In this document: positions 2,032 to 20,852 of the stretch, in pieces
Layout: the number at the start of each line of letters is the position of its first letter
Position numbering within the stretch: position 1 is the stretch's first letter
DNA from: Parvivirga hydrogeniphila
GTDB lineage: Bacteria > Actinomycetota > Coriobacteriia > Anaerosomatales > Anaerosomataceae
Assembly (NCBI RefSeq): GCF_023371205.1
Contig: NZ_JAMCCO010000001.1
Location: forward strand, 34,662-58,661
Reading direction: 5' to 3'
DNA length: 24,000 nucleotides
Notes under the pieces: generated by a model
Told to the model about the DNA's origin: nothing
Seen by the model: only the letters and a program-made list of their open reading frames with translations
The model's database searches: none
Position numbers and translations under genes: made by a program

Positions 2032-2919
2032 TCACAGAGCACAGGCACCGCTCCACGCGCAGAGGTTGTCGCGCAGCACGTCAGGCAGAGCGGCCACGAG
2101 GTCGCGGGCCCGCATCGCCGGCGTAGCGCCCATGACCCGACCCGCCTCGCGGTTCGCGCGCGCCGCGCACACGGCGGCGTCCAGCGTCGGGAACCCCGCC
2201 GCCAAGAATGCGGAGGCCAGCCCTGCAAGCGTGTCGCCCGTCCCGCCTATCGCCTCGAGGGCCGGGACCAGGGGCTCAGCGACGGTCGCCACGACTTCGC
2301 CTTGCTCGGCTATGTGGTCGATCTCACCCTTGACGATGAGCACGCGCGCTGCGCCGCCCCGCTCGTGCGCCAGGCCGCTGAGCTTCACGGGGTCGAACCC
2401 GTCCGTGCCGAAGAGATAGTGCGAGACGTATGCAGGGTGTGTGGCCGCAGGGTCTGCCAGGAAGCCGAGCTCGCCGACGTCCGGCGTCATCAGCTCGAAG
2501 CGAGACGCGAGCCCCGCCGCCTTCGCGGCGTACATCCCCCCAGCGTCCGCGACCAAGAGCGCTCCAGGCGCCTCGCGCTCGACCGCGCCGACCGCCTCGC
2601 GCATGAGGGCCATGATCGGCTGCAGGTAGTGGAACGCGACGACAGACGGCCGCGCCTGCGCGAGCGCTGCTGGCAGAGCATTGAAGACTGCGCGCGTGCC
2701 GTCGCCGCGTCCGATGTCGCCCGCGATGAGCGCCCAGGGCGCGGAAGTCCCGAGGTAGCGCGACGCTGCGCACGCCGCCCCGAGCATCGCGGCCGTGCCC
2801 TGGGCATGCGGGACGGCTGCATCGCCCACGCGAAGCGAACCGTCGGTTTCGAGGAACGCTGGCCCGAGCACCAGCGGACCGCCTTCGACCGGATACGTCG
2901 CGACCACGAGAAGCGTCAT
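2032..2919 (-). CDS. Carbohydrate-kinase-fold protein, NAD(P)HX-dehydratase-like (YjeF C-terminal / NnrD-like); last gene of the yedE operon
   Basis: Track ORF 2032..2982, with the start placed at ATG 2919 (MTLLVVATYP), which overlaps the upstream stop as ATGA. Motifs seen by eye match B. subtilis YxkO/NnrD-type proteins: GTAAMLGAACAASRYLG, VADAGGMY, LMTPDVGELGFL (compare TPHPGEF), VLIVKGEIDHI (compare VLKG..T.I) and AIGGTGDTLAGLASAFL (compare GGTGDTLTG). Confidence 0.8.
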   Translation of the reverse strand: MTLLVVATYPVEGGPLVLGPAFLETDGSLRVGDAAVPHAQGTAAMLGAACAASRYLGTSAPWALIAGDIGRGDGTRAVFNALPAALAQARPSVVAFHYLQPIMALMREAVGAVEREAPGALLVADAGGMYAAKAAGLASRFELMTPDVGELGFLADPAATHPAYVSHYLFGTDGFDPVKLSGLAHERGGAARVLIVKGEIDHIAEQGEVVATVAEPLVPALEAIGGTGDTLAGLASAFLAAGFPTLDAAVCAARANREAGRVMGATPAMRARDLVAALPDVLRDNLCAWSGACAL

Positions 2920-3464
2920 GCCGGCTCCACCCCTAGAAGAGCGCACGCCTCTTCGTACGCGCGGTCGAGCATCAGCCCGCACAGCGTATACCCCAGCGAC
3001 TTCGGTCGCGGAGCCTCGTCCAAGCGCCTGCCGACCAGCTCCACGTTGAGGTACGGGATGTCAGGGCAGCCGCCGCCGGAGGTGTTGACGATCACCAGCG
3101 TGTTCTTGTCGACGACGATCTTCATGTTGCCCGCACGCACCATGAGGTGGTCTCCGAAGTCCACAGTCGTCACGAGGTCGACAGGTGCGGCCGACGAGCC
3201 TGGATCGTCGACCCAGCCCCGCACGGGCACGCCTGACTCGCGCAGCAGACGCTCGGCGCCCACGTGCTCGACGCGCGGCACCGCGACGGCGAGATCGCAG
3301 CCGGCCCGCAGGTGGTGCGGGGGCGCAACGAGCGCGTAGTCGTACCCCGCTCTTTTCAAGACGCGCTCCGCCCACAACGCGTCCGGGACTTGGTCGAACA
3401 GGAAGAGCCCGGACGCCTCGTGGGCGTCCGGGGCCTCCCTGCGGTCTTTCTTCCGGAAGAGCAT
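2916..3464 (-). CDS. DUF3343 (putative Se/S-carrier)-like domain fused to an uncharacterised Cys-containing C-terminal domain (182 aa)
   Basis: Inner part of track ORF 2916..3647. The ATG at 3464 (MLFRKKDRRE) overlaps the yedF-like stop (TGATG). The N-terminal 80 aa (GLFLFDQVPDALWAERVLKRAGYDYALVAPPHHLRAGCDLAVAV) look like DUF3343. I do not recognise the C-terminal roughly 90 aa (VDFGDHLMVRAGNMKIVVDKNTLVIVNTSGGGCPDIPYLNVEL...LCGLMLDRAYEEAC). Confidence 0.7.
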   Translation of the reverse strand: MLFRKKDRREAPDAHEASGLFLFDQVPDALWAERVLKRAGYDYALVAPPHHLRAGCDLAVAVPRVEHVGAERLLRESGVPVRGWVDDPGSSAAPVDLVTTVDFGDHLMVRAGNMKIVVDKNTLVIVNTSGGGCPDIPYLNVELVGRRLDEAPRPKSLGYTLCGLMLDRAYEEACALLGVEPA

Positions 3465-3676
3465 CACGACGACTTCTTGCCGATGATCGTCCAGCCCTCG
3501 GCAGTCTCCTCGATCGCTACGTCGTACGAGCTGTCCTTGAGCAGGTTCACGACATTCGCCTTCGCCGTCCCGCTGTCCACGAGCACGGTGATCGCCTCCG
3601 GCTCTGCCTCGAGCGCCTTCTTCGTGCGCATCAGCGGGACCGGGCACGAGAATCCTCTGACATCGACCTCGACCAT
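3464..3676 (-). CDS. yedF: TusA/SirA/YedF-like sulfur(selenium)-transfer protein (70 aa)
   Basis: Inner part of track ORF 3464..3901, starting at ATG 3676 with GGGAGGAGG 6 nt upstream. The peptide MVEVDVRGFSCPVPLMRTKKALEAEPEAITVLVDSGTAKANVVNLL carries the TusA-family CPxP active-site motif. Confidence 0.85.
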   Translation of the reverse strand: MVEVDVRGFSCPVPLMRTKKALEAEPEAITVLVDSGTAKANVVNLLKDSSYDVAIEETAEGWTIIGKKSS

Positions 3677-3690
3677 GTGCGCCTCCTCCC

Positions 3691-4953
3691 TCACGCCGTC
3701 CGCTCGCGCTTGATGAGCGCGATGGCGACGAGAACGACTGCCATGACAGCGAGCGCCGGCCATCCGTACTGCGACAGCCCCTTCGGTGAGGACGCGATGC
3801 CGTACCAGTGCGCGAACAGCGCGCCTCCCATCATGCCCAGGACGGCCGCGAACGCGTCGGCATCGCCCTCGCCGGACATGATGACCTGCCGGAACGGGCA
3901 TCCACCGAGCATGACAGCAGCGAGGCCGGCCACAGTCATCGCCGCGAAGTTGCCGAGCGCGTCGGTGTGCGCGATAGGCTGGTTCTCGAAGCCGAGATTG
4001 AACTGGCCGAGCACGAGGTTGGCAACGAACGCGCCGACGAGCAGGCCGATCACGCCGAAGAGCAGGTCGAAGCGCCGCACCAGCACGACATCACGGATGC
4101 CGCCGATGGAGCAGAAGCGGCTTCGCTGCGCCACGACGCCGAGGACGAGACCGGCAACGAGCGCGATGTACAGCGGTGCACGCTTGCCGCCTGGCTGCGG
4201 CTTGGCCTTCGCCACTGCCTCCGCAGACGCGACGACTGCGCCATCGGCACCTACGACCGAGCCGTCTTCGGCAAGCGTGGCACCTTCCGGCTTGAGAATC
4301 GTCGCCGGTTTGCCATCAGGGCCTTTCAAGAAGACGGCGGGGGGCGTCGTGCCCGTCGCGAACGCCTTTGCCTTGGTGACGGTGAAGCCCATCGGAGCGG
4401 AGCCCGAGGACGATGCGAGCGCGAGAGCCAGCAGCACGATTGCGAGCACGGGTCCAAGCCATCCCACGGGCGCAGGCAGCTTCACGGACCTACCGAGGTT
4501 GTAGCCGCTCTTCAAGAACAGAGCGCCCACGGTGACCCCGACGATGATCCCGAGGATGCCGTAGACGGCGTTGAGGTCGCCGCCGGCCAGCCGCAGCCAC
4601 GCCCTGACGGTGCAGCCCAAGAAGATGAGCGCCGAGGTCATGAAGATGAATCCGAGCACGAATCGAAGCGGCGTGCTGGATCCGCCACGAGGCCGGAACT
4701 CCTTCGTGGCGAGGGAGGCGGCCATCGCACCCAGCATCAGACCGACGATCTCCGGCCGGATGTAGGCGACCGCCCCCATGTTGGCCTTGGTCCCGCCGAA
4801 GAAGCCGACCGTATCGCGCAGGAAGCACGCGATGCACAGACCCATGTTCCCCGGGTTGCCCTGGCTCACGAGCCAGGCCGCGACGACGCCGATGAACGCC
4901 CCGGCCGCGCCGAAGACCCACGCAGACGGCCCTACCATGCGCCTTCCAGACAT
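3691..4953 (-). CDS. yedE: YedE/YeeE-family membrane transporter (putative selenium/thiosulfate-type uptake protein)
   Basis: Track ORF 3691..4953. Hallmark sequence QGNPGNMGLCIACFLRDTVGFFGG, plus conserved Cys motifs in the second half (RSRFCSIGGIRD, GGCPFRQV) and many TM segments. An alternative start at ATG 4938 (MVGPSAW) is also preceded by GGAAGG. There is a hydrophilic insertion of roughly 80 aa at residues 181-259. Confidence 0.88.
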   Translation of the reverse strand: MSGRRMVGPSAWVFGAAGAFIGVVAAWLVSQGNPGNMGLCIACFLRDTVGFFGGTKANMGAVAYIRPEIVGLMLGAMAASLATKEFRPRGGSSTPLRFVLGFIFMTSALIFLGCTVRAWLRLAGGDLNAVYGILGIIVGVTVGALFLKSGYNLGRSVKLPAPVGWLGPVLAIVLLALALASSSGSAPMGFTVTKAKAFATGTTPPAVFLKGPDGKPATILKPEGATLAEDGSVVGADGAVVASAEAVAKAKPQPGGKRAPLYIALVAGLVLGVVAQRSRFCSIGGIRDVVLVRRFDLLFGVIGLLVGAFVANLVLGQFNLGFENQPIAHTDALGNFAAMTVAGLAAVMLGGCPFRQVIMSGEGDADAFAAVLGMMGGALFAHWYGIASSPKGLSQYGWPALAVMAVVLVAIALIKRERTA

Positions 4954-5024: not shown

Positions 5025-6620
5025 TCAGCGCGGGTTCTTCGGCGGGAAGTCGAGCGCCCGGACGAAAGCGCCTTGGAACTGCGGTGCCGATGCGAGGTCC
5101 AGCGTGCGTATGCTCGCGGCCACGCGGTCCGCCTCGCGTCGCGCGGCGCGCGAGACGCACGCGGCACGAGCGCCCTCGAGCGCCGCATTCCCGACGAACG
5201 AGAACCGCGTCTCGAGGCCGTGGGGCACCATCCCGATGCGCACCAGCGAGGACGCGTCTGCGTGCAGACCGAAGCCGCCGGCCACCACCACGCGCTCCAC
5301 CTGCTCCGCTCTGATGCCGGCCTCGTCGAGCAGAAGCTCGATCGCCGCCCGTATGGCGCCCTTCGCGAGCTGGACGGCCCGCACGTCTTTCTGGGTGAGG
5401 ACGACCGGACGGCCGGCGTCCACCACGAAGGCCCGGACGCCGTCGCGCTCGATCACTCGCTCATCGAGCGGACCGCCCGGCGCTTGAAGCCTTCCGCTCG
5501 GGTCGAGCACGCCCGCGTCCAGCAGAGCCGCAAGCAGATCGAGCGTCCCTGAGCCGCACAACCCGAGCGGCGGCACGCCGCCGATGACGTCGAGCTCGAG
5601 CCCATCTTCCGTCCGACGCACGCGTTCGATGGCTCCTGGCGCGGCGCGCATGCCGCTCGTGGTGCCCGCCCCCTCCAGCGCCGGACCTGCCGCAGCAGAC
5701 GCCGCGAGAAGGCCGGAACCGGTCGCCAGCACGACCTCCGCATTCGTCCCGAGGTCGATGAAGAGCGCGGGCCCTTCGCTGAGCGCGAAGCGCGTCGCGA
5801 CGATGCCGGCGACGACGTCCGCGCCGATGAACGCCGAGGCGCAGGGAAGCGCGTGCACCGAGACGTGCTCGAGCCCCGCCAGCCCGAGCTCAGCCCCCGA
5901 TGCGTCGCGCGCCGCCAACGGCACCCCTTCGTACGGCGCGGCGCCGAGCGGGCCCACGTCGTCGCCGAGGAAGATGCCGCGCATCGCGGTGTTCCCGCAC
6001 ATCACGAGCTCCGAGACCGCAGAGGCCGGAGCCCCGGCGTCGGCCATCACGGCGTTCGCGAGGCGCACGACTTGCGCGACGAGCGGCGCTCGGAGCGCCT
6101 CGAGCCCTTCGTGCTGGACGGCAGCGACGCGCGACATGACGTCGGCGCCCCACGGGAACTGCGCATTCAGCATGCTCCGCGTGGCCTCGACGTCGCCGGT
6201 GGATAAATCGACCAGCGCGAGCACGACCGTTGTGGTGCCGATGTCGAACGCGAGCCCGAGCGACCCGGCCCCCAGGTGCTTTCGGCTGTCCGGCTCCCAG
6301 AAAGATGCCTCCGTCGCGTGCGCGACCGCCCGCACGGGCGCGACGTCCGCATCGTGCACGCGCACGTCTCCGAGCACCCGCGCCCGGCACGCCAGACGAT
6401 GCCCGCTCGCGACCGCATCGACGCCGAGCACGGCGAGCTCCTCCTCGGCGGGCGCCGACAGCGCTCCTTCTGCGCGGACCACGCACCTGCCGCACGTCCC
6501 TACGCCGCTGCACTGCGCATCGATAGGCACGCCTGCCGCCCGGGCCGCCGCGAGGAGCGTGGCGTGCGGCTCGACGCACACGTGCACACCGTGACGGGGG
6601 AACTCGACTCGTGGCGACAA
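5025..6620 (-). CDS. 2Fe-2S ferredoxin-domain / ASKHA ATPase protein (DUF4445; RACo-like reductive activator of corrinoid enzymes)
   Basis: Track ORF 5025..6620. The N-terminus has a plant-type ferredoxin Cys pattern (CSGVGTCGRCVV ... ACRA). ASKHA motifs are LAFDIGTTTVVLALVD, FIDLGTNAEVVL, GLCGSG and VVAGGFG. The start codon is TTG at 6620 with AGAGG about 9 nt upstream; the exact start is uncertain. Confidence 0.85.
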   Translation of the reverse strand: MSPRVEFPRHGVHVCVEPHATLLAAARAAGVPIDAQCSGVGTCGRCVVRAEGALSAPAEEELAVLGVDAVASGHRLACRARVLGDVRVHDADVAPVRAVAHATEASFWEPDSRKHLGAGSLGLAFDIGTTTVVLALVDLSTGDVEATRSMLNAQFPWGADVMSRVAAVQHEGLEALRAPLVAQVVRLANAVMADAGAPASAVSELVMCGNTAMRGIFLGDDVGPLGAAPYEGVPLAARDASGAELGLAGLEHVSVHALPCASAFIGADVVAGIVATRFALSEGPALFIDLGTNAEVVLATGSGLLAASAAAGPALEGAGTTSGMRAAPGAIERVRRTEDGLELDVIGGVPPLGLCGSGTLDLLAALLDAGVLDPSGRLQAPGGPLDERVIERDGVRAFVVDAGRPVVLTQKDVRAVQLAKGAIRAAIELLLDEAGIRAEQVERVVVAGGFGLHADASSLVRIGMVPHGLETRFSFVGNAALEGARAACVSRAARREADRVAASIRTLDLASAPQFQGAFVRALDFPPKNPR

Positions 6621-9257: not shown

Positions 9258-11618
9258 CTACCGGACGCTCGGCTTGAACCGCTTCAGCATGAGCGAGCTC
9301 GTCACCACGCTGACGCTCGAGAGCGCCATCGCAGCGCCTGCGATCTCGGGCCGCAGCAGACCCAGTGCCGCTACCGGAATGCCGAGCGTGTTGTACCCCA
9401 GCGCCCAGACGAAGTTCTGCCGGATCTTCCGCATCGTCGCCTTGGAAAGCTCGAAGGCTGACACCACGTCGCGCAGGTCGTTTCGGACCAGCACCACATC
9501 GCCCGCTTCGAGCGCGACGTCAGTTCCGGCCCCCATCGCGATGCCCACGTCCGCTTGCGCCAGAGCGGGGGTGTCGTTGATGCCGTCCCCGACCATCGCC
9601 ACCACGCGGCCTTCGTCCTGCAGCCTGGCGACCTCGCTCGCCTTGCGCTCCGGCATGACCTCGGCGAGCACACGCTTCGGGTCGATGCCTGCCTGCTCGG
9701 CGATCGCGCGGGCAGTGCGAGCGTTGTCACCGGTGATCATGTAGACCTCGCGGCCTGAGCTTTCGAGCAACCGGACGACCTCGCGGCTCTCCGGCTTGAT
9801 GGTGTCCGCGACAGCGATCAGCCCTGCCAGGCGTCCGTCGACCGCCACGAGAAGGACGGTCTCGCCGCTGTCCTCGAACGCCTCCACGCTCGCCTCAGCC
9901 CGCGAAAGGTCGATGCCCTCCTCTGCGAGCAGCTTCCGCGTGCCGCACACGACGCGCACGCCCTCCACGGAGCCAGCCACCCCCCGCCCTGGGACAGCCT
10001 CGAACGAGTCCGGCTTGTCGAGAGCAAGCCCACGCGAGCGCGCTCGTTCCACCACCGCATCGGCCAAGGGGTGTTCGGAGGCGCGCTCCAATGACGCAGC
10101 GAGCCGAAGCAGCTCGTCGTCGCTGATGCCGAATGCGAGCGTCCGGGTGACCTGCGGCTTGCCGAGCGTGAGAGTGCCCGTCTTGTCGAAGACGACCGCG
10201 TCCACCTTCTCCAAGCGCTCGAGCGCCTCGGCGGTCTTGAACAGCACCCCGAGCTCGGCGCCCTTCCCGGTGCCGACCATGATGGCGGTCGGTGTCGCCA
10301 GCCCCAAGGCGCACGGGCACGCGATGACGACGACCGCTGTGCCCGCAAGGAGCGCCTTGACGAACGGCGTGACCTCCGCGTACAGGCCGGGGTCCGCGAA
10401 GCGCGGCACGATCAGCAGCCACACCAGGAAGGTCATCGCCGCGGCAGCGAGCACCGCAGGCACGAAGATCGCGGAGATGCGGTCGGCGAACCGCTGCACG
10501 GGCGCTTTCGAGCCTTGCGCCTGCTCCACGAGGCGCACGATCTGCGCAAGCATCGTGTCACGACCGACCTTGGTGGCACGCATCGTGAACGACCCCAGCT
10601 TGTTCACCGTGGCGCCGATCACCGCGTCCCCGGGGTTCTTCTCGACGGGGATCGATTCGCCAGTGAGCATCGACTCGTCCACTGACGAACGCCCCTCCAC
10701 GACCACGCCGTCCACCGGGACCTTCTCGCCCGGCCGCACCACGATGAGGTCGCCGGGGACGACCTGCTCGATCGGCAGGTCGACTTCCGCGCCGTCTCGC
10801 ACGACCCTTGCGGTCTTGGCCTGAAGACCCATCAGTTTGCGGATGGCATTGCCCGTCCGGCCCTTCGCCCGCGCTTCGAGGAGCTTCCCGAGCAGCACGA
10901 AGGTGATGAGCAGCGCTGCGGTCTCGAAGAACACTGGCTCGTTCTCGAGCGCTGGCACGAACGTCGCAGCCGTCGAGTAGAGGTAGGCCGCGCTCGTGCC
11001 GATAGCGATGAGCGTGTCCATGTTGCCGGTCCGCTGCTTGAGCGCGTGCCAGAAGCCGCGGTAGAACTGCCGGCCGGCGATGAGCTGGACCGGGGTCGCG
11101 AGGACGAAGCCCAGGTACTTGGCCACCATCATGGGGTCCCACATGCCGCCGAATACGCGTTCGAGCAGCGCGGCCAGCGCTCTGGGGACGGTCTCCATGA
11201 ACGGCGGCACCATGGAGATCAAGAACAGCGGCACCGAGAGCGCTGCCGAGAACACCAACAACCGCTGCTGGCGGCGCTCGTGCTCTCGCTGGGCCGCGCG
11301 CTGGACGTCTTCTGCTTCGGATACCGCCCCTGGCGCCGAGGACGCCTCTTCCAAGGGCGCGGCGCCGTACCCGGCCCGCTCCACCGCCTCGACGATCTCG
11401 CGCACGGCCACGACGGCCGGGTCGAACGACGCGGTCATCTTCTCGCTCGCCAGGTTGACGTTCACGGCCTCGACGCCCGGCAGTCTGCTCACCGTCTTCT
11501 CTATCACGGCAGCGCACGCGGCACAGGTCATCCCGGTGAGGGCGAATGCGGCCTCCTCAGCCACCTGCTCCTTTTCGCTCGTCGCATCAGATCTCGGCTC
11601 TTCCACCGGTTCCTCCAT
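9258..11618 (-). CDS. copA: Copper-translocating P1B-type ATPase
   Basis: Track ORF 9258..11618. It has one HMA domain ([13 protein letters not shown]), the TM CPC motif ([12 protein letters not shown]), DKTGTLT, SEHPLA and [10 protein letters not shown]. The annotated ATG at 11618 has no good RBS. GTG at 11606 is preceded by GGAGGA at 4 nt and may be the true start. Confidence 0.95.
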
Positions 11619-11645
11619 TCACAGGTGGGCTCTCGCCCACTGATC

Positions 11646-13076
11646 TCACTGAACCACTATCTTCCCGAACACCATGCGCATCCCGCAGTTGAACCCGATC
11701 TCGCCCGGCTCCAACGCTGGAAGCGTGATGGTCACGGGCCCCTCGGTCAGGTCGCGAGCGATACCGAGATCCGGTATCTCGACCACCGAAAGACAGCCCG
11801 TGGACTGCGTGAAGGTGATCTCGGCCGGCACGCCGCGCTTGAGCACCACGATGTCGGGCACGTAGCGTCCCGACGAGGTGTCGATGGTGATGCGCTGCAC
11901 TCCGGCGTCTATCGTGGCCGTGCCGGTCACCGACGGCCCGCTCGCGCCGCCTCCGCAGCACGCGCACGAGTACGACGAGCCGGCTGGCGAGCCGGCCGCG
12001 TCCGCCGTCACGGACGTCCGGCCGCCGTTGCCGCCGCGCGACGCAGCTCCGCCCGTCGGAACCGCACGGATCTCGCCGCTCATCATGCCCATCCCGCACG
12101 TGAGGGTGTACGTCCCTTCGGGCAGCGCGGGGAGGTCGACCGTCGTGGTGCTGAAGGCGGCGAGGTCCACCAGCACCCCGGCCTGCGGCACTGCGAGCTG
12201 GGCCGAGCATGCGTTGTCCTCTCGCCGGTCGACGACGAGCCGCACCGGCCTGCCTGCAGGCACCTCGATGGTCTGGGGCTTGAACTGCACGTTCTCGATC
12301 ACCAGCGACACTTCGGCCACACCGTCGGCTGCGACTGCGTAGGTGCTGCTCGACGAGCTCGGTCCGGTCACCGCGCTCGCGATTCGCGAGAACGACACCG
12401 GCGAGCCGATCAGATTGAGCCCTCGGTCCAGCATCACGAGCCCGAGCACCGCGACCAGCACGGCGGCGAACGCCATCATCCTGCGCTTGAACTGCGCGGA
12501 GAGCAGCCCTGATGCCGCTCCGAAGCCGAGCATCAGGGGCATCGTTCCCAGTCCGAAGCCGAGCATCGCAAGCGCGCCGCCCGCCGCCGAGCCCGCACCT
12601 GCGGCCGCGATCTGCGCCGAGAGCAGCGGACCGCACGGCATGAGCCCCGTCATCAGCCCGAACACCGCCGGCGTGGCCAGGCTCGTCTCGGTCCCACCGC
12701 TCCTGCTGGTGCGACGGAGCCGGCCGAGCGCGTTCATGAGCGGTCTGGGCATGCGCGGCACGAGCCGGGTCAACGCCGGGAACTTGCCCGTCATCTGGAG
12801 ACCGAGCAACACCATGATGATCCCGGCCGCGACGGTGACCCACCCGCGGAAGCGGCCGAGCCCCAACAGCCCTCCGATGGAGCCCATCAGAAGGCCGACC
12901 AGGACGTAGCTGGTCAAGCGTGCAGATTGGTACACGACGTGAGGTACGAGGCGTCCCACGCCGCTCGCGCCGTCGGCGCCCCGCACAGCATAGGTGAGCA
13001 CGAGCGGACCGCACATCGCCACGCAGTGCACGCTCGTGGCGAGTCCGATGCCCACCATGGGCCAGAACAGATTCAT
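11646..13076 (-). CDS. DsbD_2-type membrane domain fused to two cupredoxin-like (Cupredoxin_1-type) domains; metal-handling partner of CopA
   Basis: Track ORF 11646..13115. I place the start at ATG 13076 (MNLFWPMVGIG) because of AGAGGAGGA 4 nt upstream. The membrane half carries VHCVAMCGP and LMPCGPL. The two C-terminal beta domains end in TLTCGMGMMSGEIRAV and GFNCGMRMVFGKIVV. The linker contains SCACCGGG. Confidence 0.85.
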   Translation of the reverse strand: MNLFWPMVGIGLATSVHCVAMCGPLVLTYAVRGADGASGVGRLVPHVVYQSARLTSYVLVGLLMGSIGGLLGLGRFRGWVTVAAGIIMVLLGLQMTGKFPALTRLVPRMPRPLMNALGRLRRTSRSGGTETSLATPAVFGLMTGLMPCGPLLSAQIAAAGAGSAAGGALAMLGFGLGTMPLMLGFGAASGLLSAQFKRRMMAFAAVLVAVLGLVMLDRGLNLIGSPVSFSRIASAVTGPSSSSSTYAVAADGVAEVSLVIENVQFKPQTIEVPAGRPVRLVVDRREDNACSAQLAVPQAGVLVDLAAFSTTTVDLPALPEGTYTLTCGMGMMSGEIRAVPTGGAASRGGNGGRTSVTADAAGSPAGSSYSCACCGGGASGPSVTGTATIDAGVQRITIDTSSGRYVPDIVVLKRGVPAEITFTQSTGCLSVVEIPDLGIARDLTEGPVTITLPALEPGEIGFNCGMRMVFGKIVVQ

Positions 13077-13146
13077 GCTTCCTCCTCTGGAAAGAGACAG
13101 GCCGTATTCCCGCACTCACGAAGCGCGGCACGCAGAGGAGGAGCTA

Positions 13147-15123: not shown

Positions 15124-15882
15124 TTACGGCACCAGCACGTTCGCGAACACGAGCCAGGCGAGCAGCGACTTCGCCGCGAGGCTCAAGAACACGTATGCGG
15201 ACTCGCCGAACAGGTAGTCCTTCCACTTCCCGACCTGCTTGTACTGCAAGAACTGGTTGAGGGCGAAGCTGTTGAAGAACAAGAAGATCGAGACGAAGAT
15301 CCAGTACACGAACGAGGGCGTCAGGTCGCTTGCACCCGGCCCCCACAGGTACACCGCGATCGCCATCCACGGGAAGATGCCCGCGATGCACCCGAAGATG
15401 AACGGCGTCCAGTCCGGCTTCCCGGGCTGCTCGTACTTCTCCATCAGCCAGCCGAAGAGGATCATCGACGCGTTCACACCCGCGATGGCCGTGAGTGCGG
15501 CGATGTCGGTGATGCCGGTGATCGATGCGATCAGCACGACCATGAGCGAGGAGCTGAAGGCGTACTCGATCCAGCGGTAGTAGTTGTGGCTCTTCTTCAA
15601 GCCATCGACGTACCCCCTGAATGCTGGCCCGGCGATGACGAAGTGGGCGAGCGCCGACATGAACAGGAAGAGCGCAACTGCATATCCGAGCTCGTACTCG
15701 AAGTAGAGCTTCGGCTGGCTGAACACGCCCGAGCCGGGCCGCGTGTCGAGCCACGACGCGGTGACCGCCACCTTGTACGAGCGAGTCATCACCACGATGG
15801 CCAGACCCTGGGCCAGGTGGAAGAAGCCCATGACGAGGTTGTAGAGCCTGAGCCGCTTGAACCGGGATTCTGTGTCGCTCAT
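15124..15882 (-). CDS. Heliorhodopsin (7-TM retinal protein, inverted-topology rhodopsin family)
   Basis: Track ORF 15124..15882, with AAGGAG 6 nt upstream of the ATG. The protein is close throughout to my memory of HeR 48C12: FFHLAQGLAIV, MSALAHFVIAG, YRWIEYAFSSSLMVVLIA, IAGVNASMILFGWLMEKYEQP, FGCIAGIFPWM, LFFNSFALNQFLQYK and YVFLSLAAKSLLAW. The Schiff-base Lys (K238), counterion Glu (E106) and the two conserved His (H22, H80) are all present. Confidence 0.93.
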   Translation of the reverse strand: MSDTESRFKRLRLYNLVMGFFHLAQGLAIVVMTRSYKVAVTASWLDTRPGSGVFSQPKLYFEYELGYAVALFLFMSALAHFVIAGPAFRGYVDGLKKSHNYYRWIEYAFSSSLMVVLIASITGITDIAALTAIAGVNASMILFGWLMEKYEQPGKPDWTPFIFGCIAGIFPWMAIAVYLWGPGASDLTPSFVYWIFVSIFLFFNSFALNQFLQYKQVGKWKDYLFGESAYVFLSLAAKSLLAWLVFANVLVP

Positions 15883-17679: not shown

Positions 17680-19020
17680 TCAGAACTCCAGCGCCTCCAG
17701 CCGCTCGAAGATCACGCCTGCGCGCTTCAGGAACGCACGGGGATCGAAGATGGCGTCAAGCTGGTCTGGGCTGAGCACGCAGTCGGTGTCGGACTCGAGC
17801 ATCTCACGGAAGCTCGGTCCGCTTCGCGCGTGCTGGATGTCGTCCCACACGCGCATCGCGTTGCGCTGCACGATAGCGTACGCATCCTCGCGCTTCATAC
17901 CCGCGTCGACGAGCGCCAGCAGCACGCGTGAGGAGTAGATGAGCCCTCGCGTCTTCTCCAGGTTCGCGCGCATGTTGTCGGGATAGACGCGCAGTCCGTC
18001 CAAGATCCAGGCCAGCTTGTCGAGCAGGTAGTCGAGCGCGATGAACGAGTCGACCAGCACGACGCGCTCCGCGCTCGAGTGCGAGATGTCGCGCTCGTGC
18101 CACAGCGCCACGTTGTCGAAGCCGACCTGCGCGTTCGCCTTCACCACGCGCGCGAGCCCGCAGACGCGCTCGGCGGTGATGGGATTGCGCTTGTGCGGCA
18201 TGGCCGAGGAGCCCTTCTGGCCCTCAGCGAACGGCTCTTCGACCTCGATCGTGTCGGTCTTCTGGAGCGCACGGACCTCGGTCGCGATGGCTTCGGCGGT
18301 GGCCGCGACTGTGGCGAGCACGGCGAGCACGTGCGCGTGCCTGTCCCGCGCGATCACCTGCGTCGAACACGGATCGGGAGCGAGCCCCAGCTTCTCGCAC
18401 ACGTACGACTCCACGAACGGGTCGATGTTGCTGTACGAGCCGACGGCACCAGAGATCGCGCCCCACGCACAGGAGTACTGGCGTGTGGCGATAAGCCTGC
18501 TCTCGGCGCGCTTGAGCATCCACGCCCAGCTCGCCCACTTCTGGCCGAACAGCATCGGCTCAGCATGGATGCCGTGGGTGCGCCCGACGCACACCGTGTC
18601 GCGGAACTCCAGCGCGCGGCGCTTGCAGATGCGCCCGAGGCGCCTGACGTCTTCGATGATGATGTCTTGGGCCTGCGTCATCTGGACGCACAGCGCGGTG
18701 TCGCCGAGATCCGACGAGGTCATGCCATAGTGCACCCAGCGGCTCGGTTTGGGATCTTCCGGGCCCAGGCCGGCGTCGATGTGCTCGGCCATGTTCGTGA
18801 GGAACGCGATGACGTCGTGGTTCGTGGTGCGCTCGATCTCCTCGATGCGCGCTACGTCGAACGCCGCCTTCTCGCGGATGACGGCGAGGTCGTGAGGGGG
18901 GACGATGCCGATCTCGGCAAGCGCCTCGCACGCCAGGATCTCGATGCGCTTCCAGATCTCGAACTTGTTCTCGAGCGACCAGATGCGGCCCATCTCGGGG
19001 CGCGTGTAGCGTTCGATCAT
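17680..19020 (-). CDS. purB: Adenylosuccinate lyase
   Basis: Inner part of track ORF 17680..19443. I place the start at ATG 19020 (MIERYTRPEMGRIWSLENKF), with GAAGGAG 6 nt upstream. The PurB sequence is typical throughout (SSAMPHKRNP signature loop). Confidence 0.95.
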   Translation of the reverse strand: MIERYTRPEMGRIWSLENKFEIWKRIEILACEALAEIGIVPPHDLAVIREKAAFDVARIEEIERTTNHDVIAFLTNMAEHIDAGLGPEDPKPSRWVHYGMTSSDLGDTALCVQMTQAQDIIIEDVRRLGRICKRRALEFRDTVCVGRTHGIHAEPMLFGQKWASWAWMLKRAESRLIATRQYSCAWGAISGAVGSYSNIDPFVESYVCEKLGLAPDPCSTQVIARDRHAHVLAVLATVAATAEAIATEVRALQKTDTIEVEEPFAEGQKGSSAMPHKRNPITAERVCGLARVVKANAQVGFDNVALWHERDISHSSAERVVLVDSFIALDYLLDKLAWILDGLRVYPDNMRANLEKTRGLIYSSRVLLALVDAGMKREDAYAIVQRNAMRVWDDIQHARSGPSFREMLESDTDCVLSPDQLDAIFDPRAFLKRAGVIFERLEALEF

Positions 19021-19108
19021 CGTCGGCTCCTTCGTCGAGTCGGCGTGCAGCGCATGGCTCCGATGCGCATTATCGCCGACCGGGCCGCCGGGGTCACGCG
19101 AGAACGCC

Positions 19109-19347
19109 TCAGCGCGTGGTCGGTTTCTCGCCTTCGACGAAGCCGACGTCCCAGTGCTTGCCGTCGCAGAAGGCTTGTTGTGCGACGCTCCACACCGGCC
19201 GAGCACCGCCGTCTCGCTGCACGCGATGTCGGAGCGGTCGTCGGCCAAGAGCGGCGCAAGATCCTGGGCGTCGATCCTCCTGCGGTACACAAGCGGGCCG
19301 TTCTTCAGCGGCTCGATGGGTGGTCCCGTGTGCGCGTCAAAGGCCAC
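19109..19347 (-). pseudogene. CDGSH-type iron-sulfur domain gene interrupted by a 1-nt frameshift (or an assembly error)
   Basis: GTG at 19347 is preceded by GGGAGGGAGGAG at 6 nt. The translation is VAFDAHTGPPIEPLKNGPLVY...ETAVLGRCGASHNKP. At about 19170 the frame must shift by one base (AAGCCTTCTGCGAC, expected AAGCCnTTCTGCGAC) to continue FCDGKHWDVGFVEGEKPTTR-stop at 19109-19111. Without the shift the frame runs on into purB. The first Cys of the CxC pair reads Gly. Confidence 0.6.
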
Positions 19348-19392
19348 GGTGCGCTCCTCCCTCCCGGCCGTCGAGCCCTTGGGAAACTGAGA

Positions 19393-19428
19393 GGCCCCGC
19401 GCCAGTATCGCAGAGCCGGCGCGGGGCC
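19393..19428 (-). terminator. Rho-independent-type terminator after the peroxiredoxin gene
   Basis: The minus strand reads GGCCCCGCGCC, a 14 nt loop, then GGCGCGGGGCC (a perfect 11-bp stem), followed by TCTCAGTTTCCC. It starts about 19 nt after the stop at 19447. Confidence 0.6.
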
Positions 19429-19446
19429 CCTGGGCTGTACCATGTT

Positions 19447-20055
19447 TTACTCGTCGCCGGGCTTCCAGACCTCCCACACGCGACCCACCAAGTCCGGACC
19501 GGGCTTGAGGACCTTCTTGCCGGGCTCCCACCCGGACGGGGTCACCTCGGCGCCTTTCGTTTCGCGCACGTGCTGGAATGCCTTTATCTGCCGGAGCGTC
19601 TCGTCCACCCTGCGGCCGACCGGTGGCGTCAGCACTTCCATTGCCTGCACGACACCGTCGGGGTCGATGATGAATCGGCCGCGGACGTTGACGCCCGCCT
19701 CGTCGTCGTACACGCCGTAGGCTTTCCCGAGATGGCCGGCGGCGTCCGCGATCATCGGGAACGGGATGCCGCCCTCGATCATCTTCGAGAGCTCTTGTTC
19801 GTCCCAGATCTTGTGCACGAACTGCGAGTCCACACTCACGGCCATGACCTCGACGCCGAGGGCCTGGAACTCGCCGTACTTGGCTGCGACCGCAGAGATC
19901 TCGGTCGGTCAGACGAACGTGAAGTCGCCGGGATAGAAGCACAAGACGACCCACTTGCCAAGGTAGTCCGAGAGCTTCACCTGCTTGAACGAACCCTTAT
20001 GGTATGCAGGAGCCACGAAGTCTGGCGCATTCCGACCGACCATGATGCTGCTCAC
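19447..20055 (-). CDS. Peroxiredoxin (AhpC/Prx1 type) with in-frame TGA at the peroxidatic Cys position: probable selenocysteine peroxiredoxin (PrxU-like)
   Basis: Track ORFs 19909..20163 and 19447..19845 are in the same frame and are separated only by TGA at 19909-19911. The joined sequence is ...[16 protein letters not shown][TGA][32 protein letters not shown]..., which is the universal FYPxDFTFVCPTE active site. I place the start at GTG 20055 (AGGAGG 5 nt upstream). The total of 202 codons is normal for a Prx. Confidence 0.85.
19887..19907 (-). promoter_or_regulatory. Candidate SECIS-like hairpin immediately 3' of the in-frame UGA
   Basis: The mRNA reads UGA-C-CGACCG-AGAUCUCUG-CGGUCG: a 6-bp stem and a 9-nt loop containing G and U. 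The stem starts 2 nt after the UGA, which is closer than in classical E. coli-type SECIS elements, so this is tentative. Confidence 0.35.
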
Positions 20056-20217
20056 TGCCGCCTCCTGACGCTTCTCATCAGATGGTTGACCTTCCACGCT
20101 TTTCGGCTCCGCTCCAACGACTGATCCTGTAGGACGCGCACATCCCACGACATCGTCTGCCACAGCATCCTCCTTTCATCGAGCTCGAGCCGTCGCCGTG
20201 TGACGCAGGATGGATAC

Positions 20218-20276: not shown

Positions 20277-20852
20277 ATGCCGAGCATCAAGGGCACGAGA
20301 ACCGAGCAGAACCTCTTGAAGGCGTTCGCCGGCGAAAGCCAGGCCCGCATGCGGTACACGTACTTCGCAAGCGTTGCCAAGAAGGAGGGCTTCGAGCAGA
20401 TATCCGCGATCTTCACCGAGACCGCAGACAACGAGAAAGAGCACGCCAAGGTCTTCTTCAAGTACCTCGAGGGCGGCGACGTCGAGATCACGGCCTCCTA
20501 CCCGGCCGGCGTCATCGGCACCACCGCCGAGAACCTGCTCGCTGCCGCCGAAGGCGAGCTCATGGAGTGGGGCACGCTCTACCCGGAGTTCGCACGCGTC
20601 GCCGAGGAGGAAGGATTCCCGGAGATCGCCGCCTCGTTCCGGGAGATCGCGAAGGTGGAGTCCTACCACGAGCGTCGATACCGGAAGCTCCTGGACAACG
20701 TCAACGGCTACACGGTGTTCAAGAAAGACGGCGTCGTGTACTGGAAGTGTCGCAACTGCGGCTACGTGTACGAAGGCGCCGAGGTCCCGCTGGAGTGCCC
20801 TGCCTGCAAGCACCCGCAGGCGTACTACGAGCTGTGGTGCGAGAACTACTGA
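20277..20852 (+). CDS. rbr: Rubrerythrin (diiron four-helix-bundle domain plus C-terminal rubredoxin-like CxxC...CxxC)
   Basis: Track ORF 20277..20852, with GGAGG 5 nt upstream. The peptide is TEQNLLKAFAGESQARMRYTYFASVAKKEGFEQISAIFTETADNEKEHA ... WKCRNCGYVYEGAEVPLECPACKHP. Confidence 0.95.
   Translation: MPSIKGTRTEQNLLKAFAGESQARMRYTYFASVAKKEGFEQISAIFTETADNEKEHAKVFFKYLEGGDVEITASYPAGVIGTTAENLLAAAEGELMEWGTLYPEFARVAEEEGFPEIAASFREIAKVESYHERRYRKLLDNVNGYTVFKKDGVVYWKCRNCGYVYEGAEVPLECPACKHPQAYYELWCENY

Follow-up and report, generated by a model that had tools for sequence, protein, structure and literature searches.

A probable selenocysteine peroxiredoxin of the PrxU family, encoded across an in-frame UGA, with a conserved N-terminal cysteine tail and a candidate nested start

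PrxU of Eubacterium (Peptoclostridium) acidaminophilum is reportedly a peroxiredoxin of 203 amino acids with selenocysteine (Sec, U) at position 47. Peroxiredoxins require their peroxidatic residue for catalysis. Peroxiredoxins with Sec in a TxxU motif are a long-listed, experimentally founded family of prokaryotic selenoproteins, according to the passages of PMC13188914 and PMC9312934 that cite Sohling et al. (2001), and 43 of their genes were reported from the Sargasso Sea in 2005 (PMC1088965). Here we describe a prxU locus on the minus strand of a 24,000-nucleotide stretch of DNA (contig NZ_JAMCCO010000001.1, positions 34,662 to 58,661), which we call the window and whose own numbering is used throughout. 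The locus is an additional member of a curated, widespread selenoprotein family and adds nothing fundamental to it. We consider it about 85% probable that it is one intact, functional gene encoding a thioredoxin-dependent Sec peroxiredoxin of the AhpC/Prx1 fold. The main remaining doubt comes from a weak selenocysteine insertion sequence (SECIS) and from Sec machinery that would lie outside the window.

An earlier, sequence-only reading of this DNA had proposed a Sec-recoded peroxiredoxin and not a pseudogene. This proposal is supported by the family hidden Markov model, by a universal TGA with purifying selection downstream of it, by a TGA-specific covarying hairpin and by linkage to the gene for tRNA-SeC in spirochaetes. 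The same reading held that few such cases were known; this does not stand, as the family has been listed since 2001-2005 (PMC1088965, PMC9312934, PMC13188914) and is represented by a dedicated NCBIfam model.

The long reading frame of prxU (19447..20163, minus strand) consists of 238 codons including Sec85, followed by a TAA at 19449-19447, which makes 239 in total. Two listed open reading frames (ORFs), 19909..20163 with 84 amino acids and 19447..19845 with 132 amino acids, both on the minus strand, belong to this same frame, and translation confirms the earlier claim that they are split by a single TGA at 19911-19909. This TGA is the only interruption between 20163 and 19447. As the sequence-only reading had also recognized, the stop codon (19909..19911) occupies the position of the peroxidatic cysteine (Cys) within the peroxiredoxin active-site motif, which reads T82-F-V-U85. 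When a Cys was put at the stop, the translation matched the Pfam domain AhpC-TSA at 2.4e-40, and Redoxin and 1-cysPrx_C were matched as well. The 153 codons 3' of the UGA contain no frameshift and no additional stop. The earlier reading placed the locus correctly, but it ended the gene at 20055, where a second start lies inside the frame; the frame itself, a conserved peptide and a strong Shine-Dalgarno sequence all reach the GTG at 20163-20161. The Shine-Dalgarno sequence, AAGGAGG (20169..20175, minus strand), lies 5 nt 5' of this GTG, and 72 of 77 orthologous loci likewise have one, 5 nt or longer, ahead of their long-form start. We recommend annotating the two ORF fragments as a single selenoprotein gene, prxU, of 238 codons that starts at 20163 and has a transl_except at 19911-19909.

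The protein matches the NCBIfam equivalog model NF040737 (peroxi_PrxU) with 406.2 bits (cutoff 270), and residues 6-235 cover model positions 2-231 of 233. Its scores lie below the cutoffs of the AhpC model TIGR03137 (201 bits, cutoff 272) and of the 1-Cys peroxiredoxin models NF009668, NF009669 and NF009670 (137, 122 and 109 bits; cutoffs 261, 211 and 374). The match to PF10417 concerns a C-terminal domain that AhpC/Prx1-type members of the PrxU family match as well. Among solved structures in the PDB, those of human Prx2 and other Prx1/AhpC-type enzymes rank first (1.6e-50, approximately 50% identity over residues 40-224), and the active-site motif is aligned with theirs. The residues that form the pocket, P78, T82, U85 and R161, are all present; their columns do not vary among 79 family members and are aligned to Prx2. 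With this pocket, the selenolate is expected to reduce peroxide.

Our protein resembles PrxU of E. acidaminophilum in belonging to the same curated family (406 bits) and in having the TxxU motif, the AhpC/Prx1 fold and a UGA at the peroxidatic position; in addition, the product from the internal start would have approximately 200 residues. The two differ in their source, which is clostridial for the described enzyme and probably an actinobacterial genome of 67% GC here, where the best database identity is 84%. The frame in the window also bears an N-terminal Cys tail and a Thr at position 208. Typical 2-Cys peroxiredoxins (human Prx2, PDB 7kj1/1qmv; bacterial AhpC) share with it approximately 50% of the core residues, the PxxxTxxC(U) pocket, the conserved Arg and the EVxPxxW arm. 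In contrast to these enzymes, our protein has Sec for the peroxidatic Cys, Thr for the C-terminal resolving Cys, and an N-terminal tail of approximately 40 residues that is found in none of the solved structures. Translation bears out the earlier statement that the C-terminal motif reads EVTPSGW: Thr208 (ACC, 19540..19542, minus strand) stands in the position of the canonical resolving Cys. Of 80 orthologues, 35 have T here, another 35 have C and 5 have M.

Comparison with related loci supports the UGA as a Sec codon. A GTDB scan with one genome per species yielded 80 related loci with 64-82% identity, from more than 10 phyla (Actinomycetota, Thermodesulfobacteriota, Spirochaetota, Myxococcota, Acidobacteriota, Zixibacteria, Ignavibacteria, Gemmatimonadota, KSB1, Chloroflexota and others). 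The aligned peroxidatic codon is TGA in all 80, and thus its position is not due to chance. When the window was compared with the four closest loci, the ratio of nonsynonymous to synonymous substitution rates (dN/dS) was approximately 0.04-0.14 over the 100 codons after the TGA, equal to that over the 44 codons before it; by this measure the sequence 3' of the TGA is under strong purifying selection. TGA also terminates 14 of the 19 confidently identified genes in the window, where Trp is encoded by TGG and the only in-frame TGA is that of prxU, which itself ends with TAA. As TGA is an ordinary stop codon here, the code does not appear to be reassigned. Finally, a gene for tRNA-SeC (anticodon TCA) lies 60-420 nt 3' of prxU in five Spirochaetaceae/Spirochaetales loci from metagenome-assembled genomes (MAGs), at 10932-11021 in L010, 11102-11193 in L011, 10769-10860 in L012, 6942-7033 in L017 and 1796-1887 in L028; we did not see this linkage in the other loci. 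The results also indicate that the organism behind this DNA almost certainly reads UGA as Sec.

Protein databases obscure this pattern. Our search of a collection of 5.8 billion proteins gave thousands of matches, and among the best 120 homologues the residue at the Sec position was W in approximately 89, G in one and C in 25. We fetched the DNA underlying two of the W entries (L085 and L086) and found TGA in both. The W and G residues are the result of gene callers switching to genetic code 4 or 25 in order to pass the TGA. The artefact is systematic; it conceals selenoproteins in public protein collections and may lead to contigs being labelled with the wrong genetic code.

The minimal SECIS of Escherichia coli comprises nucleotides 15-31, 11 nt from the UGA, with G23 and U24 in its loop (PMC8659212). 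For our SECIS test, the 75 nt from the UGA were aligned for the window and 79 loci, free of gaps and locked to codons, and two helices were compared. In the helix formed by columns 14-20 and 25-31, with the loop at 21-24, 92.5% of cells are paired, and the covariation score of this helix was 0.371, compared with 0.121 ± 0.013 for shuffled alignments; none of 500 shuffles reached it, and it was far above all slid controls. At pair 18-27, GC occurs 53 times, AU 19 times, CG three times and UA twice, with one sequence unpaired, and at pair 15-30 the counts are GC 34, AU 23, CG 10 and UA 4. Because the covarying columns 15, 18, 27 and 30 are third codon positions, selection acts on the RNA and not on the protein. 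RNAalifold predicted the same helix independently. The apical loop is GGUC, or AGUU in some sequences, and G22 and U23 are invariant. Four Cys-form genes (L081-L084) served as a control: they retain three to five of the seven pairs, none of the four can form pair 18-27 and their loops are unrelated.

In the window this SECIS-type minihelix lies at 19881..19898 on the minus strand, with the stem CUGC (19895-19892)/GCAG (19887-19884), the loop GGUC (19891-19888) and a possible closing pair U19898-A19881. The 4 bp and the GGUC loop are intact, and pair 18-27 is present in its compensated U-A version. Two lower pairs are missing because codon 28-30 is GCC (Ala) and not GAG, GAC or GGC. A sister sequence (L001) shows an equally short stem. 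Like the SECIS of the E. coli fdhF type, the element is a hairpin within the coding sequence that starts approximately 11-13 nt after the UGA, spans approximately nucleotides 14-31 and exposes a G-U in its loop (G22 U23 here). It differs in that the family helix 14-20/25-31 is uninterrupted and lacks the bulged U17 of the E. coli stem, which may be a feature restricted to E. coli SelB, in that its loop has 4 nt (GGUC or AGUU), and in that the stem in the window is merely 4 bp long. By its covariation, the minihelix is a conserved SECIS-type element of the PrxU family, with a predicted role in Sec insertion, and the window holds a weak copy of it. A by-product of the analysis is a family-wide SECIS definition backed by covariation, namely a minihelix with a GGUC or AGUU loop at +14 to +31. 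Rfam contains no SECIS family match to this DNA, either at the gathering threshold over the whole window or at an E-value threshold over 19780-19960. The only Rfam match, Guanidine-III, is on the wrong strand and was rejected as a chance match.

The sequence-only reading had pointed to a different hairpin of 6 bp, CGACCG (19907-19902)/CGGUCG (19892-19887), at 19887..19907 on the minus strand. This hairpin exists, but it is not the conserved element: its covariation does not exceed that of shuffles, it overlaps the conserved helix and it would bury the G-U loop. In the corresponding helix, 5-10/20-25, four pairs are invariant as dictated by the codons, and the two variable pairs are each broken in approximately one third of the sequences. 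Its 5' arm (+5 to +10) would probably lie inside the ribosome when the UGA is in the A site. Folding of 19840-19911, which had been suggested as a check, favoured this hairpin and gave a structure no more stable than shuffles (z = 0.07). Only comparative analysis told the two hairpins apart.

Several observations weigh against a functional Sec gene. The minihelix in the window has a stability of -4.0 kcal/mol compared with a median of -8.9 and is the second weakest of 80, whereas the 6-bp hairpin is the minimum free energy structure of the naked RNA (-8.3 kcal/mol), is more stable than the minihelix and would sequester G22 and U23. The database protein closest to ours, P0001 with 84% identity, has the Cys form, which means that switching between Sec and Cys occurs in the clade. 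Lastly, none of selA, selB, selC and selD lies within the 24 kb of the window, where ARAGORN found no tRNA and hence no selC. It is possible to read the weak minihelix, which lost its two lower pairs through a change from a Glu to an Ala codon (GAG to GCC), together with the Sec machinery not seen in the window and the Cys in the closest homologue, as signs of a recently inactivated or decaying selenoprotein gene. In such a gene the UGA would be inherited, Sec insertion would be inefficient or lost because of an eroded SECIS or lost machinery, and the product would mostly be a truncated peptide. However, 153 codons after the UGA have been kept without a frameshift or further stop and at a dN/dS of 0.04-0.14, the apical 4 bp and the GGUC loop persist, with pair 18-27 compensated to U-A, the sister sequence has an equally short stem, and a YedE operon of the selenium type lies within the window. 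We therefore consider decay improbable.

If the TGA had instead arisen from TGC or TGT, through an error in sequencing or assembly or through a nonsense mutation private to this genome, the locus would in reality hold a common Cys peroxiredoxin or a simple pseudogene. A single base separates these codons and Cys forms of the family do exist, but this explanation is very unlikely given that 80 of 80 independent related assemblies have the TGA and that the TGA-specific hairpin with its GGUC loop, missing in Cys forms, is present downstream. Reassignment of UGA in this organism to Trp (table 4) or Gly (table 25) would agree with the W and G stored for database homologues, but we give it next to no credence, as TGA ends most identified genes of the window, Trp is always TGG, no second gene has an in-frame TGA, and a peroxiredoxin with Trp or Gly as its peroxidatic residue would lose its catalytic activity. 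Together, the conserved TGA, the dN/dS values, the stop codon usage and the linkage to tRNA-SeC leave a pseudogene, a sequencing error and a reassigned code all poorly supported.

We propose the following model for a functional prxU. A short hairpin in the mRNA, approximately 13 nt 3' of the UGA at 19911-19909, would recruit SelB, which this organism presumably uses, together with Sec-tRNA(Sec). The ribosome would then insert Sec at the UGA instead of terminating. In the pocket formed by P78, T82, U85 and R161, the selenolate would reduce H2O2 or organic peroxides and would itself become a selenenic acid.

The next part of our model addresses how this selenenic acid could be recycled. The sequence-only reading had suggested that the enzyme relies on Sec alone. 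This is doubtful because two Cys residues, Cys8 and Cys75, are invariant in 80 of 80 loci and in 79 of 79 aligned database proteins. Cys75 (TGC, 19939..19941, minus strand) lies 10 residues before the Sec in the buried beta-strand VVLCFYP and aligns with a Phe in human Prx2. Cys8 (TGT, 20142-20140) lies in a conserved tail motif at residues 5-17 (20113..20151, minus strand), V-G-C-[AG]-[RK]-P-T-G-x-V-V-G, and its invariance among the database proteins extends to Cys forms and to clostridial 'YCDRP' variants. In the motif, codon positions 1 and 2 are conserved at 0.94 or above and position 3 at 0.3-0.6, which indicates that the tail motif is translated. The NF040737 model covers the tail. Upstream of the start given in the earlier reading, the extension adds 36-40 residues, consisting of the motif and then a variable linker rich in Lys and Glu, and the median distance between the Cys and the Sec is 77 residues. 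An AlphaFold2 monomer model (target P0001, 79 sequences) had a predicted local distance difference test (pLDDT) score above 90 in the core and below 50 for residues 1-35, consistent with a Cys8 tail that acts as a flexible tether. A lipoprotein reading of the 'GC' was rejected, as no hydrophobic signal segment precedes Cys8.

A precedent for such a tail comes from an unrelated enzyme. In MsrB1, thioredoxin cannot reduce the selenenic acid directly, and the flexible N-terminal Cys4 first forms a selenenylsulfide (PMC1278935). The resolving Cys found in Cys-type relatives is missing from this mammalian selenoprotein, whose flexible N-terminal Cys instead gives a selenenylsulfide that thioredoxin can reduce. 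Its fold and reaction are unrelated to those of PrxU, and the analogy is purely mechanistic. By this analogy, and because the C-terminal resolving Cys is a Thr here, we propose that Cys8 may be a tethered resolving thiol for Sec85: on its flexible tail of approximately 35 residues, it would probably capture the selenenic acid to give a selenenylsulfide, which thioredoxin would reduce. Three observations argue against this role. AlphaFold2 gave no docked conformation of the tail, Cys forms can carry the tail too, and 35 of the 80 Sec orthologues retain the canonical C-terminal Cys besides the tail, which speaks against Cys8 as a simple replacement.

The end of the linker holds a second candidate start. 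An internal Shine-Dalgarno sequence, AGGAGG (20066-20061), is followed after a 5-nt spacer by an in-frame GTG at 20055-20053 (20053..20066 as a whole, minus strand). This would give a short isoform of 202 codons, and an ATG at 20043-20041 is an alternative start. AGGAG or GGAGG occurs in a single 15-nt bin (-165 to -151 from the UGA) in 74 of the 80 loci, compared with at most 27 of 80 for any other bin. It is seen in two different codon phases, with an ATG or GTG 5-8 nt later. Moreover, two tail-less PrxU genes, one a Sec form (L085) and one a Cys form (L082), begin exactly at the internal start and have the same Shine-Dalgarno sequence. Some short database entries are mere truncations by gene callers (L086). 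The simplest reading of these sequences is that two in-frame initiation sites give a tailed product of 238 amino acids and a tail-less one of approximately 202. In our model, the internal ribosome-binding site and the start at 20055 would probably supply the tail-less isoform, which matches the form of approximately 200 residues found in tail-less family members.

We tentatively extend this to a hypothesis that we rate as somewhat unlikely. PrxU genes may be nested two-start genes in which one mRNA gives both tailed subunits, with Cys8 as the resolving thiol for Sec85, and tail-less subunits; the two could form a mixed oligomer, and their ratio could tune recycling by thioredoxin. In the searchable literature we found no paper that describes the tail or the internal start, and these two are the only mildly novel features of prxU. 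They offer a testable hypothesis for how a Sec peroxiredoxin without the canonical resolving Cys is recycled.

The window has a GC content of 67.3%, and the nearest PrxU sequences among the genome loci come from Coriobacteriaceae, Thermoleophilia and Actinomycetota MAGs (79-82% identity). A tblastx comparison of the window with the 80 loci revealed no extended synteny with actinobacterial MAGs; only rubrerythrin recurs as a neighbour. The rubrerythrin gene (20277..20852, plus strand; Pfam Rubrerythrin and RUBY_RBDX) is divergent from prxU, and rubrerythrin is found within approximately 1-3.5 kb of prxU in seven loci (L005, L014-L016, L020, L021 and L073). Beside it, prxU probably forms part of the peroxide defence of an anaerobe.

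Downstream of prxU, 17 nt 3' of its stop, there is a GC-rich inverted repeat, GGCCCCGCGCC...GGCGCGGGGCC (19393..19430, minus strand), with 11-bp arms at 19428-19418 and 19403-19393. This repeat is a possible terminator candidate without a U-tract; a scan for consensus promoters and terminators did not pick it up and found nothing relevant. The approximately 425 nt at 19021-19446, between the prxU stop and the likely start of purB (MIERYTRPEM, 19020), hold no identified gene, and a 587-amino-acid ORF (17680-19443) over-extends purB across them.

The selenium-type operon lies farther away (2916..4953, minus strand) and comprises genes for YedE, a TusA-like protein and a protein with a Se_S_carrier domain. 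The sequence-only reading had named it a yedE/yedF operon. Its YedE part holds (3691-4953, minus strand; TIGR04112 seleno_YedE, 384 bits), but the supposed YedF has only a TusA domain, at 49 bits, below the YedF cutoff of 110. The TusA-like gene (3464-3676; PF01206) encodes 70 amino acids and ends with a TGA at 3466-3464, and the gene for the Se/S-carrier domain (2916-3464; PF11823), with a GGGCPDIPY motif, overlaps it by GTGATG. We considered YedF as a second gene split by a TGA and rejected this, as the 70-amino-acid TusA gene ends at the TGA and the overlapping PF11823 gene is separate. As an operon for selenium or sulfur trafficking, it lends circumstantial support to selenium use.

Further genes were noted in the window. 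At 5025-6620 (minus strand) lies a gene for a RACo-type reductive activator of corrinoid proteins (Fer2, Raco_middle and RACo_C_ter), with no adjacent corrinoid protein gene visible in the window. A heliorhodopsin gene (15124-15882, minus strand; NCBIfam NF038020 HeR, 323 bits, cutoff 100) stands amid an anaerobe-like set of genes that includes rubrerythrin, flavodoxin, the RACo-like activator and the Sec peroxiredoxin. At 9258-13115 (minus strand), a copper-type P1B ATPase (HMA, E1-E2 ATPase) adjoins an unusual fusion of 489 amino acids that joins a DsbD_2 membrane domain to two cupredoxin-like domains.

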